This document shows, in pieces, positions 11,723 to 24,976 of a DNA stretch of 55,095 nt. Position numbers and translations under genes: made by a program. This DNA is from Patescibacteria group bacterium (GTDB lineage Bacteria > Patescibacteriota > Minisyncoccia > Phycocordibacterales > JACOZG01): assembly GCA_038064435.1 (NCBI GenBank), contig JBBTTC010000011.1, positions 1 through 55,095 of the forward strand, read 5' to 3'. The notes beneath the pieces were generated by a model that worked only from the letters and a program-made list of their open reading frames with translations, made no database searches and was not told the origin of the DNA. The stretch's first letter is position 1, and every line of letters begins with the position of its first letter.

Positions 11723-11944
11723 TTATATGTTCACGCTCCTTTCTTTTCCGCATCGGGCGCAGAATTTCCATCCGGGTCGTTTGATGTCATCCCAACTACA
11801 TTCCTTGCACCCGGTGCTCTGTTTAGCGGTTTTGACTGGTGTTGTCACTTTCTTTTCCTCCGCTTTGTAACACACAGCTAGCACACCAGTTGCAGCCAAA
11901 AACATGCAAACAATAAACAACATCACAAGCAGTCCGTTCATCAC
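11723..11944 (-). CDS. Small membrane protein with C-terminal zinc ribbon
   Basis: N-terminal TM helix, CKEC...CARCG, SD-like GGAAAGGA upstream, dedicated terminator. Confidence 0.65.
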   Translation of the reverse strand: MMNGLLVMLFIVCMFLAATGVLAVCYKAEEKKVTTPVKTAKQSTGCKECSWDDIKRPGWKFCARCGKERSVNI

Positions 11945-13407
11945 TGTTTCCTTTCCGTTTCTTGACTCGGAGCCAAAACAGATTTAATTATAAGTCCATC
12001 GGTAACTTCAAACCGATCCCAGAAAAATCCGAGGTAATGTCTCTTAAGGTTGGTAGACGCTTTTTGATAAGCATCGTAGATATTTCTTGTTAGACTCAAA
12101 ACCTCTTGAGCAATATCAACATTTACATTTCGCCCTTTTTCCAATTCAGCCAGTCGAAAATCCACACTTTCTATTTCTTTGGTAATTTCTTGTCGTACGC
12201 GAGTGAAATCATCATCGGTAATAACACCAGCAAAGAGTTTGTCTTCGGCAGTCTTCCTCTTGGCTTCAAAAGCGGTGCGCTGGTTTATACATTCTCGCTT
12301 CTTACGATCATAATCCTGTCTCCTGTCGTGAAATATCGCCCTAGCTTTGGTAATTACTAGATCAATGAACTCTTGACTAAATTCAATCTGTTTAAATTTC
12401 TCTGACACCATGTCTTCTAGCTTATTTTGTTCTATGTATTTACCACAGCCAGATCGATTGGTGCAGTGATAATAAGCCTTTTTCTTGTTGAGATGCCACT
12501 CGGCCGTGTAGCGACATTCGTGCTTGTAGCAACGGATAAAGCCAGACAAAAGCCAAGAAAATTTTCGTCTGCGACAAGCGTGGTTGTTTTTTGCTGTCAT
12601 CAATTTTTGAACACAATTGAATAACTCTTCATCCACGATCGGTTCGTGTCTTCCCCTCTTAAGGTGAACTTCGCCCCAATGCAATTCACCTATGTAGAAA
12701 CGATTGCGCAACATCTCATACATCCGACTATCTGCCAATTTTCCACCACGTTTTGTCCGCAAGCCTCGTTCGTACATGATGTCATTTAGATCAAAAACAT
12801 TATAATTACCAGTTGCATAAAGCTGAAACGATTTTTTAACTAGAGAAAATAGACCAGGATCAATCACGATGTTTTTTATTCCTACTCGCTCTGCAGATTG
12901 CGGGTTTAATGAATTTCGATAGCCAAGTGGTGCTTGACAGGGATAATATCCAGCTCTGGCTTTCTCCGACATCGTCATTATTACCTTTTCCGAGGTGATA
13001 TTCCTCTGAAATTCGTTGAACGACGCGACCATCGTGTCCATCATGATCGAAGTGGCGGAGTTATCGGAAATTGGTTGCTGGATACATCTAAGAACCACGC
13101 CGTTCTTTCTAAAAAGATTTCTTAAACTAATATGATCAGCAACATTTCGGGCTAATCGGTCGCTGTGTACGACATAGATCGCTTGAATCTTTTTCTCTAG
13201 CGTAAGTTTAACCACTTCTTGAATACCTGACCGTTTCAGAGTGCCACCACTTTTACCCTCGTCCTTGATAACACCAAAAACAGAGTAGCCATCCTTGGTC
13301 GCCTCTCGCACACAATTAGTCTCTTGCGATTCGATGGAAAGTCCGTGTATTTTCTGATCCTCAGAACTTACGCGACAATAGATTGCCGCAATTTTATTTT
13401 CAGTCAT
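11941..13407 (-). CDS. Large serine recombinase (resolvase + recombinase + Zn-ribbon/coiled coil)
   Basis: Catalytic YCRVSSEDQ, SDRLARN, GYYPCQAPLGY, LRNRFYIG, HEPIV, LLSGFIRC..YYHC. Confidence 0.95.
   Translation of the reverse strand: MTENKIAAIYCRVSSEDQKIHGLSIESQETNCVREATKDGYSVFGVIKDEGKSGGTLKRSGIQEVVKLTLEKKIQAIYVVHSDRLARNVADHISLRNLFRKNGVVLRCIQQPISDNSATSIMMDTMVASFNEFQRNITSEKVIMTMSEKARAGYYPCQAPLGYRNSLNPQSAERVGIKNIVIDPGLFSLVKKSFQLYATGNYNVFDLNDIMYERGLRTKRGGKLADSRMYEMLRNRFYIGELHWGEVHLKRGRHEPIVDEELFNCVQKLMTAKNNHACRRRKFSWLLSGFIRCYKHECRYTAEWHLNKKKAYYHCTNRSGCGKYIEQNKLEDMVSEKFKQIEFSQEFIDLVITKARAIFHDRRQDYDRKKRECINQRTAFEAKRKTAEDKLFAGVITDDDFTRVRQEITKEIESVDFRLAELEKGRNVNVDIAQEVLSLTRNIYDAYQKASTNLKRHYLGFFWDRFEVTDGLIIKSVLAPSQETERKQ
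11969..11992 (-). repeat. Left junction (att) inside the recombinase 3' end
   Basis: Minus strand TATAATTAA-ATCTGTTTTG-GCTCC, with the same spacing as the right junction. Confidence 0.7.
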
Positions 13408-13470
13408 AGTTTGTTTTGATATTAAGTTACAATCACCCGTATCGGCAACCGTAAGTTATTCACACCGGGG

Positions 13471-14496
13471 CTATTTTTTAAGCCAATAGATATGCCTACC
13501 GTTGTCGCCATTTCGTTTCCCTATTTTGTCTTCTTCCTCCAGCTGTTTAAGAGCACGAATCGTTGTCCCTTTGCTATAGTTTTCTTCCTCCAAAACCTTC
13601 ACTATGACTGACCCCTCCGTTTCGTCACCTTTCTGCTCAAGAAATTCTAAAATAATTCCGGTCGCTTCGTCGCTTTTTGTTTTACTCGGATCATGTTCTC
13701 CACCATAGCTGAATGAGACAGACCTGGTAATATCGCCGTCTTTTTCAAATAAAGCATTTATTGCAAACGGCTTTACCGCCTCGCCCTGCCTAAGTTTGCC
13801 TTGTTCAACAATGATGCGGTCGTCCCTCCCTTTTTCTTTCACGAGCGTCAACAAACAATCAATTCCTGCCAAAATGTCGGAAGAACCACGAAGACTGTTG
13901 GGGCTGTTTTGAGAAGGATAACTTTCTTTCCGGTGATGATGTACAAAGATGACTGATACGCCGATATCTGTAATCCGTTTAAATCGGTTCATTAGTTTGG
14001 CAATGCTTTTCGACTCGTTTTCGTCACCGCGGTGAATGCGGGTCAATGAATCGAAAATCACGACTCGTGCGCCAAGATGTTCGATTTCTCTCAGCAATAA
14101 TTCGAAGTGTTTATCGTCATCAACAAAAAGGTCTAACTCGTATGGGTTGTGGTAACAAATTGGCAGAGTCTTTTCCATACCGAGCAATTTTAAACGTTTT
14201 TGAATGTGTTTATAGTGGCACTCCTTGTCGACCAAAAGCACCGGACCTTGGGTGGTGGCAAAGTTACCTAAAAACGGTTTCCCCGAAGCCACACTCCTGG
14301 CGATTTCTAGCGTTATCCAAGTCTTGAAACTTCCCGGAATACCTGCGATGGCAGTTATGGATTGTTCGGGTATCAATTTCTCCACTAGCCATGAATCTTC
14401 CCCAAAATTTGTCGCCAGAAGTTCCGCAATAGTGGTGACATGTATTCCCTCCATTTTTAACTCTCGCGATCTCAATTCCACAGCATCGTCATTCAT
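13471..14496 (-). CDS. AAA_25 / RepA-like replicative helicase with C-terminal wHTH
   Basis: WLVEKLIP, Walker A GIPGSFKT, Walker B VIFDSL, FVHHHRK, LRGSS. Confidence 0.85.
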   Translation of the reverse strand: MNDDAVELRSRELKMEGIHVTTIAELLATNFGEDSWLVEKLIPEQSITAIAGIPGSFKTWITLEIARSVASGKPFLGNFATTQGPVLLVDKECHYKHIQKRLKLLGMEKTLPICYHNPYELDLFVDDDKHFELLLREIEHLGARVVIFDSLTRIHRGDENESKSIAKLMNRFKRITDIGVSVIFVHHHRKESYPSQNSPNSLRGSSDILAGIDCLLTLVKEKGRDDRIIVEQGKLRQGEAVKPFAINALFEKDGDITRSVSFSYGGEHDPSKTKSDEATGIILEFLEQKGDETEGSVIVKVLEEENYSKGTTIRALKQLEEEDKIGKRNGDNGRHIYWLKK

Positions 14497-14654
14497 GATT
14501 TATTTTTCTTAAGATTTATAATCGAATCCGTTTTTAACTTTTCCTTGGCAACCACAGCTTCATCTAGGAGAGCGATCAAGATTTCCGCTAATCTCCACGC
14601 GCCTTCCTCCAAAGTTCGACCCTTATCGCTTGGTGCTTTTGTCTGGCTAGACAT
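14493..14654 (-). CDS. Small hypothetical protein, first gene of the rep-recombinase operon
   Basis: ATG 14654 lies 6 nt after a -10-like TGTAAT. Stop overlaps the helicase start (ATGA). Confidence 0.5.
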   Translation of the reverse strand: MSSQTKAPSDKGRTLEEGAWRLAEILIALLDEAVVAKEKLKTDSIINLKKNKS

Positions 14655-23985: not shown

Positions 23986-24728
23986 ATATTGTAGAGGCAA
24001 AAACTAAAATTGATTTCGTAAAAGAAAAACTCCTTGAAATGCAGGAAGTTTCTGCTTTTATTGATGAAAAAATGTTTGAGGAAGACCCTGAAACGGGGAG
24101 CCAGTTTTTAGAGCCTGAGATTGGGATGAACGATGCGTATCCAAAAGAAAACGAAATGATGCATTCTTATTGGGATGAAATAAAAAGAAATGCACCTCCT
24201 GGGTTTTCAATTGATAGCAATCTAATCAGACATCTTTCGTTTAATGAGGCGCATGATTGGTTTGATATTACAAAAAAGGACATACCCAGAGAATTAACAA
24301 AGGTGGAAGAATACAAAAAGCAGTTATTTTTAATTGAATACTTGGATAGTTTACATCCAGAGGTTAGCCGTGTAACGGAAATTGTTTTGAGTGGTGACTT
24401 GGACGCGGCGCTTAAAACTATTTTCGCGACGCTAGACTCAAAGATTCGTGTACACATCGAGGCAAAACCAACTGAAGCCACTGTTTCTATGATTGGAAAA
24501 GCGTTCAAGAATGCTAAGTTAATTTCACCACAGGAAGAAAGTACCGATAGTGCAAGAAATTTTTTGCAAGGCGTAATTGGGTATTATAGAAATACTATTT
24601 TACACAATCCGCTCCCTACGAGTAGAAACCGCCTCGATGCTAGTTTGTCACTTTTTACATTAGCACATGAAGCGTTTAGACTCTTTGATTCTTGTTCTAA
24701 ACCAAGAGATCCGTTTCTGGAAAGTTAG
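23955..24728 (+). CDS. TIGR02391/Ymh-like (HEPN-type) C-terminal domain protein
   Basis: LHPEV, IGKAF, FLQGVIGYYRNTILH (Rx4H). Start uncertain (TTG 23955 or ATG 24039). Confidence 0.65.
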   Translation: MAKIETVSIINIVEAKTKIDFVKEKLLEMQEVSAFIDEKMFEEDPETGSQFLEPEIGMNDAYPKENEMMHSYWDEIKRNAPPGFSIDSNLIRHLSFNEAHDWFDITKKDIPRELTKVEEYKKQLFLIEYLDSLHPEVSRVTEIVLSGDLDAALKTIFATLDSKIRVHIEAKPTEATVSMIGKAFKNAKLISPQEESTDSARNFLQGVIGYYRNTILHNPLPTSRNRLDASLSLFTLAHEAFRLFDSCSKPRDPFLES

Positions 24729-24934
24729 GGCACCATAGTTAATTCCTTAATATACAGCAATTTGCTATACATCCCTTCCATGTAATCACGGTCGGAAAAT
24801 ATGGTTATAATAATCTCTTGTTCGGGGCACCTTATATCAGAATTTATAAAATCACGAGAAACAATGGATTTATCGGTGTTTCTGGTTTTATAGAAAGCCT
24901 GCTGAAGCTTCACTAACTCCTCAAACAATGGAGC
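24725..24934 (-). other. Detached C-terminal segment of the serine recombinase (67 codons after the att core)
   Basis: Begins exactly at the right junction and is in frame with the recombinase after joining at GCTCC (..VLAP+LFEELVKLQQAFYK..). Confidence 0.7.
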
Positions 24935-24953
24935 GTTACCTCTCTTAATTATA
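24930..24953 (-). repeat. Right junction (att)
   Basis: Minus strand TATAATTAA-GAGAGGTAAC-GCTCC. Confidence 0.7.
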
Positions 24954-24976
24954 CACCCTCAAATTAGTACTGTCAA
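24948..24976 (-). promoter_or_regulatory. Perfect consensus sigma70 promoter TTGACA-N17-TATAAT firing into the element
   Basis: Plus strand TGTCAA at 24971-24976 and ATTATA at 24948-24953, with a 17-nt spacer. Confidence 0.85.

Follow-up and report, generated by a model that had tools for sequence, protein, structure and literature searches.

Does a mobile element that lies between a promoter and a gene control this gene by its excision, or has it merely disconnected the two? This question is raised by a DNA stretch of 55,095 nucleotides from a Patescibacteria group bacterium (positions 1 to 55,095 of contig JBBTTC010000011.1, assembly GCA_038064435.1; the whole stretch is called the window below). 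In the window a 12,961-bp integrative element encoding a large serine recombinase (LSR) separates a perfect sigma-70-type promoter from a small gene for a putative membrane protein. The skin element and SPbeta of Bacillus subtilis are excision-controlled gene switches located in coding sequence, and a first-pass annotation of the window proposed a comparable switch here, in which excision would return the promoter to the small gene. Our analysis points to a different conclusion: the element probably represents a stable, non-canonical one-off insertion that separated the promoter from the gene, and not a regulated switch.

The source genome, which originates from groundwater, comprises 589,918 bp in 18 contigs and is 99.5% complete; the window is located on its contig C11. 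Gene content was annotated with Pfam, PADLOC and PHROGs, and RNAs with Rfam. Logan assembled contigs from four runs (X1, X5, X7 and X9) of three studies were used to check the arrangement.

The element separates a consensus promoter from a small host gene

The junctions of the element and the adjacent host sequences contain the following features:

24948-24976, minus strand: perfect sigma-70-type host promoter (12/12 match, 17-nt spacer, sequence type enriched genome-wide), now directed into the element
24945-24953, minus strand: attR core, second copy of the 9-mer TATAATTAA
11984-11992, minus strand: attL core, first copy of the 9-mer, forming the recombinase codons (L)IIK
11941-11983, minus strand: host 5'-untranslated region (5'-UTR) of the small gene, now the last 13 recombinase codons (SVLAPSQETERKQ, then stop)
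11723-11941/11944, minus strand: small host open reading frame (ORF), 72 aa from ATG 11941 or 73 aa from GTG 11944, taken from the ORF list
11672-11693, minus strand: predicted intrinsic terminator of the small gene (stem of 9 pairs, 7 of them GC, then a T run)

The promoter was read directly from the sequence: TTGACA (24976-24971) is separated by a 17-nt spacer from TATAAT (24953-24948) on the minus strand. When positions 11000-26000 were scanned, 30 promoter-like sites were listed, and this was the only one that matched the consensus at all 12 positions. Eight perfect TTGACA-N16-18-TATAAT sites are present in the whole genome (589,918 bp), against 0.25 expected from its composition, so the organism appears to use the TTGACA/TATAAT consensus.

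The -10 hexamer is contained in the 9-mer TATAATTAA, which occurs exactly twice in the window, both times on the minus strand. The DNA between the two copies is 12,961 bp long and has a GC content of about 0.41, compared with about 0.50 in the flanks. Neither duplication nor deletion of the target was found at the junctions, which share a clean 9-bp common core. Contigs from runs X1, X5 and X7 span both junctions with 0-1 differences, while run X9, from the third study, contributed pieces of the element. The possibility of an assembly chimera was rejected on the basis of these independent contigs across both junctions.

At the sequence level the element physically parts one host unit: the -35 box and spacer (24954-24976) lie on one side of it, and the 5'-UTR, Shine-Dalgarno sequence, ORF and terminator (11983-11672) on the other. 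When the element was removed in silico, the -10 box ended 45 nt before ATG 11941, and the rejoined flanks read as one continuous unit of -35 box, 17-nt spacer, -10 box, 45 nt including an AAGGA Shine-Dalgarno sequence (7 nt before ATG 11941), the 72-aa ORF and the terminator. This unit lies back-to-back with a promoter-like site of leuS (24978-25007) in a divergent region of about 115 bp. The encoded protein combines a membrane helix at the N-terminus with a CxxC...CxxC zinc ribbon at the C-terminus. We agree with the first-pass annotation that the promoter at 24976-24948 would once have served the small ORF.

In the present state the complete promoter (-35, spacer and -10) stays at attR. It is directed into the detached end of the recombinase gene described below, antisense to a Ymh-like ORF and a restriction-modification (R-M) operon. 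The detached fragment has no Shine-Dalgarno sequence between the likely transcription start and its first start codon, TTG 24928. At attL the small gene has kept the -10 hexamer and lost the -35 box; the scan of 11000-26000 lists no promoter-like site on the minus strand there. The recombinase stop codon TGA (11943-11941) overlaps both GTG 11944 and ATG 11941 (TGATG, with the A shared). While the element is integrated, the terminator at 11672-11693 would also end the recombinase transcript.

All sequence features that the first-pass annotation had described at this locus were found to be present. They include the perfect promoter at the right junction, the -10 box as the shared att arm, the small zinc-ribbon membrane gene with its own terminator (hairpin and T run, 11693-11672) and its coupling to the recombinase stop. 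The promoter had been placed about 40 nt upstream of this gene after removal of the element, close to the 45 nt measured here from the end of the -10 box to the ATG. The promoter is also oriented as claimed, into the recombinase tail and antisense to the defence operon; antisense transcription itself is a prediction from this orientation.

The crossover lies within the recombinase gene

The recombinase gene is divided between the two junctions:

11941-13407, minus strand: large serine recombinase, integrated form, 488 aa (Pfam PF00239, PF07508, PF13408)
24725-24952, minus strand: detached 3' part of the recombinase gene (75 codons, located after LIIK in the free element; continuous reading frame across the core, blastp matches)

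The integrated form matches PF00239 at residues 7-154 (3.9e-30), and in the alignment its YCRVSS motif, with R12 and S14, falls in nearly invariant columns, so the catalytic motif is preserved. The 488-aa form retains all three domains (catalytic, recombinase and zinc-ribbon) intact but lacks the native last 74 aa. In total 483 homologues were collected, with source names including Paceibacteria, Nomurabacteria and Yanofskybacteria, and the best 119 (47-69% identity) were used for comparison of the tails. The homologues are 30-90 aa longer, and their alignment ends at about 97-98% of the query.

The missing part was located at the other junction, as the first-pass annotation had stated. The translated frame 24952-24725 aligns with the C-termini of 107 of the 119 homologues (68 of them at E<=1e-3, blastp), the best match being P0058 with 56% identity over 72 aa (E 3e-22), and these alignments begin exactly where the integrated gene leaves the family sequence. 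Because the tail continues the recombinase frame and matches the C-termini of homologues, the crossover point can be placed within the codons L-I-I-K of the element's own recombinase gene, with the 12,961 bp between the repeats as the element. Integration thus exchanged 74 native residues for 13 residues encoded by the host (SVLAPSQETERKQ). Neither the 488-aa gene nor the 75-codon tail is disrupted as an ORF, and conserved residues are present in both. The small ORF lies outside the junction set by the split recombinase gene, and we therefore rejected it as a part of the element.

To place the break in the protein structure, we used an AlphaFold2 model of the full-length relative P0058 (mean predicted local distance difference test, pLDDT, 82.5; low confidence at residues 498-547). 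From residue 5 to about 490 this model aligns with the structures of SPbeta-type, Bxb1, Listeria (LI) and phiC31 integrases (Z 14-19). Helices 346-393 and 399-442 form a long pair, the coiled-coil insertion of the zinc-ribbon domain. The LIIK residues are located in the last beta-hairpin (473-479), which is followed by a confident helix (481-488) that corresponds to the C-termini in the Bxb1 and LI structures. In the model, this helix corresponds to the segment replaced in the integrated copy. The 488-aa protein would accordingly be a near-minimal serine integrase without the conserved terminal helix that canonical integrated forms keep.

The recombinase family normally integrates at tRNA genes

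In 400 other genomes of the same class we found seven with a homologue of the recombinase, and in all seven a tRNA-His gene is convergent with the 3' end of the integrase gene. The C-terminal sequences of the 119 homologues are consistent with this location. About 45 residues after LIIK (consensus SVPSLLFxELLKLEQAFxK...) are kept in 118 of them; past this segment the proteins either stop or read through the reverse complement of a tRNA T-arm and acceptor stem, and a tRNA-like read-through motif, ESNxRP, is present in 35. Alignments extending far into the native end (..IITILSD..YM....S.L.YIKE..) were obtained only for P0058, P0094, P0120 and the detached tail of the window. Detached tails of the canonical type, about 35 aa long, were found in genome G146 (three copies: L057, L059 and L060) and as protein P0123. 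The three tails in G146 suggest that elements of this family have inserted there more than once in the past.

Given the tRNA-His gene at all seven relatives and the tail sequences of the 119 homologues, it can be regarded as a family trait that the crossover takes place close to the end of the gene, against the 3' end of a tRNA gene. The break in these relatives lies about 45 codons downstream of the LIIK break in the window, and the closest homologues (62-69% identity) all have the canonical break. Among the 120 listed family members the LIIK break was found in no other case than the present one. P0033 diverges four residues after LIIK, on a 1.6-kb contig without context. A search for stand-alone tails of the LIIK type returned two proteins: that of the window and a short tail of the canonical type. 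When the viral_contigs collection was scanned with the recombinase alignment, only distant recombinases (23-31% identity) were found; the family is absent from this collection. The suggestion of the first-pass annotation that the integrase may target strong TATAAT promoters is contradicted by these data.

A site of the usual type is still present in the element:

24810-24850, minus strand: site resembling the canonical attP inside the detached tail (codons ...RCPEQE...), with tRNA-acceptor-like GGGGCACC and TTATAA on both sides, as read from the sequence

We infer that this is a canonical-type attP-like site which was bypassed in the present insertion. The actual break is 135 nt upstream of it. 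TTATAA lies about 20 bp to either side of the canonical site; in the present insertion it lies at the crossover itself. The only tRNA gene in the window is tRNA-Thr (8928-9001), and the junctions are flanked by the promoter and the 5'-UTR, with no tRNA 3' end. It should be mentioned that the host tRNA-His ends with ...GACACCC, compared with ...GGCACCC in the targets of the relatives; this mismatch may explain why a canonical insertion is missing there.

Some side observations concern this site and other possible targets. The site at 24810-24850 has 7-8 nt in common with the 3' ends of two tRNA genes of this genome, tRNA-Lys(CTT) and tRNA-Leu(TAG) (C16:14585-14658 and C16:16612-16694). No recombinase gene was found beside tRNA-Lys, so this tRNA gene looks unoccupied. 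The same 20-nt sequence follows tRNA-Leu(TAG) at the end of C16 (after 16694) and tRNA-Asn at the end of C18 (after 6872); its presence at two contig ends suggests a repeat, perhaps another element, that breaks the assembly. The end of C3 (88977-89894) carries part of another serine recombinase, which is unrelated to that of the element (25% identity over 323 aa).

The altered position of the crossover could also mean that the element belongs to a retargeted sub-lineage, with LIIK as its true attP, the promoter region as its true attB and the separation of the promoter as a side effect. In that case the insertion would be a regular site-specific event at an intergenic target. The clean 9-bp core without target duplication or deletion would suit such a sub-lineage, as would the host arm, which resembles the family coding consensus at the same position. 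The element's own sequence there reads RGNAP in place of the family SVPS, as a changed site might, and the different end of the host tRNA-His points in the same direction. On the other side, neither the 119 homologues nor the stand-alone tails provided a second example, the closest homologues all break canonically, and the tRNA-like site with its TTATAA dyad is still carried in the tail. Nor was dyad symmetry found around the core actually used. In reconstructed attP and attB none centred on the 9-bp core exceeded background; the best dyads found in the scan matched 10 and 12 of 24 positions, respectively, and were off-centre. Known att sites of serine integrases are only weakly symmetric. Taking these points together, we consider a retargeted sub-lineage possible, though rather unlikely.

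The insertion is probably stable

The main attraction of an excision-controlled switch lies in the geometry of the locus. In-silico removal of the element yields an ideal unit of promoter, UTR, Shine-Dalgarno sequence, ORF and terminator, and the integrase body and tail, both intact, rejoin in frame. Excision would thus restore both the promoter and the integrase gene, and the element or the host could regulate the small protein. The same logic is reported for insertions into coding sequence, namely by the comK prophage of Listeria and the hlb phages of Staphylococcus aureus. Nevertheless, neither the expected 12,961-bp skip (empty site) nor a circle junction was present among the best 15 of 50 contig joints from the four runs, in contigs that drop rare variants. 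Contig depth is a per-contig mean and unfit for comparison of host and element. No excisionase or recombination directionality factor (RDF) was recognised by Pfam, PADLOC or PHROGs, though RDFs are too diverse for its absence to follow. The integrated enzyme is more truncated than the usual integrated form of the family and, judging from the structural model, lacks the conserved helix kept there. The arrangement is unique among the relatives and homologues compared, with none having the same site or synteny, and the gene to be controlled is an orphan without assigned function. The switch proposed in the first-pass annotation, for which the geometry alone speaks, is therefore in our view improbable.

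A related possibility is that the recombinase gene contains two usable crossover sites, the canonical tRNA-type site and the LIIK site, where TATAATTAA mimics a -10 box, and that together they give a reversible promoter switch. This we strongly doubt as well.

Since its relatives cross over about 45 codons downstream, against a tRNA 3' end, the present event is best regarded as a one-off, non-canonical insertion. We propose that the 12,961-bp element recombined into the chromosome of about 590 kb through the 9-bp identity (TATAATTAA) between its LIIK codons and the -10 region of the consensus promoter. The target would have been the divergent region of about 115 bp between the small membrane/zinc-ribbon gene and leuS. 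Two routes seem about equally likely, namely action of the recombinase on a secondary pair of sites and illegitimate recombination at short homology. The clean junction with its 9-bp core, the S-V encoded by the host arm and 12 nt shared with G301 speak for the enzyme. Illegitimate recombination is favoured by the uniqueness of the event, the lack of a dyad centred on the core and the position of TTATAA at the crossover, not about 20 bp away. After such an insertion, which would be stable, the small gene would be expressed, if at all, by read-through from the leftward operon of the element, ending at its own terminator, and the strong host promoter would give antisense RNA into the island.

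Several observations weigh against this interpretation. After the core the host arm encodes S-V like the family consensus (IIKSV), and it has 12 nt in common with integrase DNA from G301; this likeness could mean that the enzyme recognises the sequence. A common core of 9 bp is within the range of genuine att pairs of serine integrases, so the event may have been site-specific after all. The 488-aa gene and the 75-codon tail are both intact, as expected if excision matters or if the event is recent. Finally, the evidence on excision comes from assembled contigs only, which are blind to rare products.

The small gene and its chromosomal neighbourhood

The small protein had no match in Pfam, PADLOC or PHROGs. 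Among 5.8 billion (5.8e9) proteins we found no orthologue, only the window's own copy, and when contigs of metagenomes and genomes were scanned with the protein, the matches were limited to weak zinc-ribbon similarities in unrelated bacteria. The GC content is 0.461 in the ORF and 0.415 in the adjacent spacer, compared with about 0.51 in the two host genes on the flanks:

9704-11539, plus strand: host pheT, phenylalanyl-tRNA synthetase beta chain, left flank (Pfam B3_4, B5, FDX-ACB; GC 0.509)
25015-27294, plus strand: host leuS, right flank (Pfam), with its own promoter-like site at 24978-25007

A search for relatives of the region at the DNA level among 60 genomes returned the own genome only. 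To look for the empty sites with pheT-small ORF-leuS synteny that the first-pass annotation had anticipated, we inspected the 1.5 kb preceding leuS in 27 relatives of the family, and neither pheT nor the small ORF was found there in any of them.

The small ORF and its promoter might be left over from an earlier mobile element, or be non-coding, and in this case nothing functional would have been separated. The lack of an orthologue, the GC content of ORF and spacer below that of the host genes and the fact that the pheT-leuS adjacency is not common to the 27 relatives could all be understood in this way. On the other side, the ORF has a Shine-Dalgarno sequence, a membrane helix, the four zinc-ribbon cysteines and its own terminator, and the perfect promoter is positioned for it. 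Moreover, ORFs of the same build, 62-88 aa long, with a single membrane helix and a zinc ribbon of the form C.CGW...W.FC..CGK, were found in three relatives (L006 in G006, L007 in G005 and L014 in G009). Those of G005 and G006 adjoin the housekeeping genes for enolase, an S41 protease and ribosomal protein L9; for the genes next to the G009 ORF no family was matched. We regard a remnant as very improbable, and the occurrence of such look-alikes in relatives fits a fast-evolving class of chromosomal genes. The look-alike ORFs of the three genomes may form an unannotated class of small proteins.

Three further observations concern this region. The zinc ribbon of the small ORF (11806-11738) is 52% identical over 23 aa (E 0.04) to the N-terminal zinc ribbon of a protease encoded by the element (16309-16371), probably a generic similarity. 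The TATAAT of the leuS promoter-like site (25002-25007) is 7 nt before ATG 25015, so the leuS mRNA may be leaderless. Just downstream of pheT there is a near-perfect palindrome of 41 nt (11582-11622), with 95% identical copies at C6:447-487 and C1:61067-61103 of the same genome; it may be an element like the repetitive extragenic palindromes (REP) or a shared terminator.

Other genes of the element

Besides the recombinase, the element carries a likely replication gene, a small RNA and an R-M operon:

13471-14496, minus strand: AAA_25 / RepA-DnaB-like ATPase, likely replication protein (Pfam AAA_25, 2e-31; PHROG primase/helicase families)
15609-15728, plus strand: LOOT small RNA (Rfam RF03000; 94.6 bits, gathering score 46.4), within the element's divergent control region
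16294-17448, plus strand: zinc-ribbon trypsin-like protease (Pfam Trypsin_2; PADLOC protease models)
17471-17884, plus strand: stand-alone receiver domain (Pfam Response_reg)
18484-21078, plus strand: HsdM-HsdS fusion of a type I R-M system (Pfam; PADLOC MTase_I, 5e-134)
21084-23537, plus strand: HsdR of a type I R-M system (Pfam; PADLOC REase_I, 7e-129)
23955-24728, plus strand: weak Hypoth_Ymh-like ORF (PF09509, E 0.0011, below the cut-off)

The Ymh-like ORF is convergent with the detached recombinase tail and overlaps it by 4 nt. Several other ORFs of the element had no assigned function. The ORF at 15539-15727 (minus strand) and the start of that at 15605-16288 (plus strand) overlap the LOOT RNA and are probably mis-called there. 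About 100 nt of the LOOT region are common to other contigs in the runs, with locally raised depth and with loose ends at 15691 and 15723, so this RNA recurs on other elements in the same community. In the literature we found nothing on the LOOT RNA beyond mention of its name.

Comparison with known systems

The tRNA-targeting split-tail LSR elements of Patescibacteria, islands of 5-16 kb in genomes of the candidate phyla radiation (CPR), have a recombinase of the same clade (47-69% identity, best 119 homologues). In them, too, the crossover lies in the 3' codons of the recombinase gene and the C-terminal tail is exchanged. They differ from the present element in that about 30 residues are removed and the target is a tRNA 3' end, whereas in the window 74 residues were removed and the target was the -10 box of a promoter between protein genes. 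In the literature we found neither a serine integrase whose own gene contains attP nor a description of serine-recombinase elements of Patescibacteria.

Partly similar layouts have been described for tyrosine recombinases. The attP site of Myxococcus phage Mx8 is located inside int, and integration gives a recombinant gene with a different C-terminus (PMC6070905). Only this gene layout is common to both cases: Mx8 Int is a tyrosine recombinase following its normal, characterised route, while the enzyme of the window is a large serine recombinase. Similarly, the 'suicidal' integrases of the SSV type, from archaeal viruses and plasmids, are reported to have the recombination site within the integrase ORF, so that the gene is split on integration (PMC7253208). 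These archaeal enzymes are of the tyrosine type and are split into two large halves; in the window the tail alone is removed.

As regards the effect on the host, prophage HK022 at the torS-torT intergenic site of Escherichia coli is reported to have an adjacent host gene transcribed from within the prophage (PMC6814406). Insertion into an intergenic control region rewires transcription of a neighbouring gene there as it would here. For HK022 this was shown by experiment and a phage promoter reads outward; the rewiring in the window is deduced from the sequence, and a host promoter also reads inward. In active lysogeny, as with the comK prophage of Listeria and the hlb phages of S. aureus, the element likewise lies between parts of one host unit, which precise excision would restore. 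Those elements interrupt coding sequence and their regulated excision is demonstrated, whereas in the window excision was not observed and the insertion site is unusual for this family of enzymes.

The locus thus provides a base-exact case of a CPR mobile defence island that cut a consensus promoter from a gene and, at the same time, cut its own integrase. It also shows that a member of a tRNA-targeting serine-integrase clade can arrive at a non-tRNA site by way of a different point in the integrase gene. Should two crossover sites after all be usable, the element could colonise hosts with an unfit tRNA target; its enzyme would then have a more deeply truncated isoform, and the promoter swap would report the state of integration to the element. 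If the event was catalysed by the enzyme, it bears on the evolution of target choice in serine integrases, which are used as tools in genome engineering. If it arose by illegitimate recombination, it would illustrate how islands become trapped and domesticated in tiny genomes.

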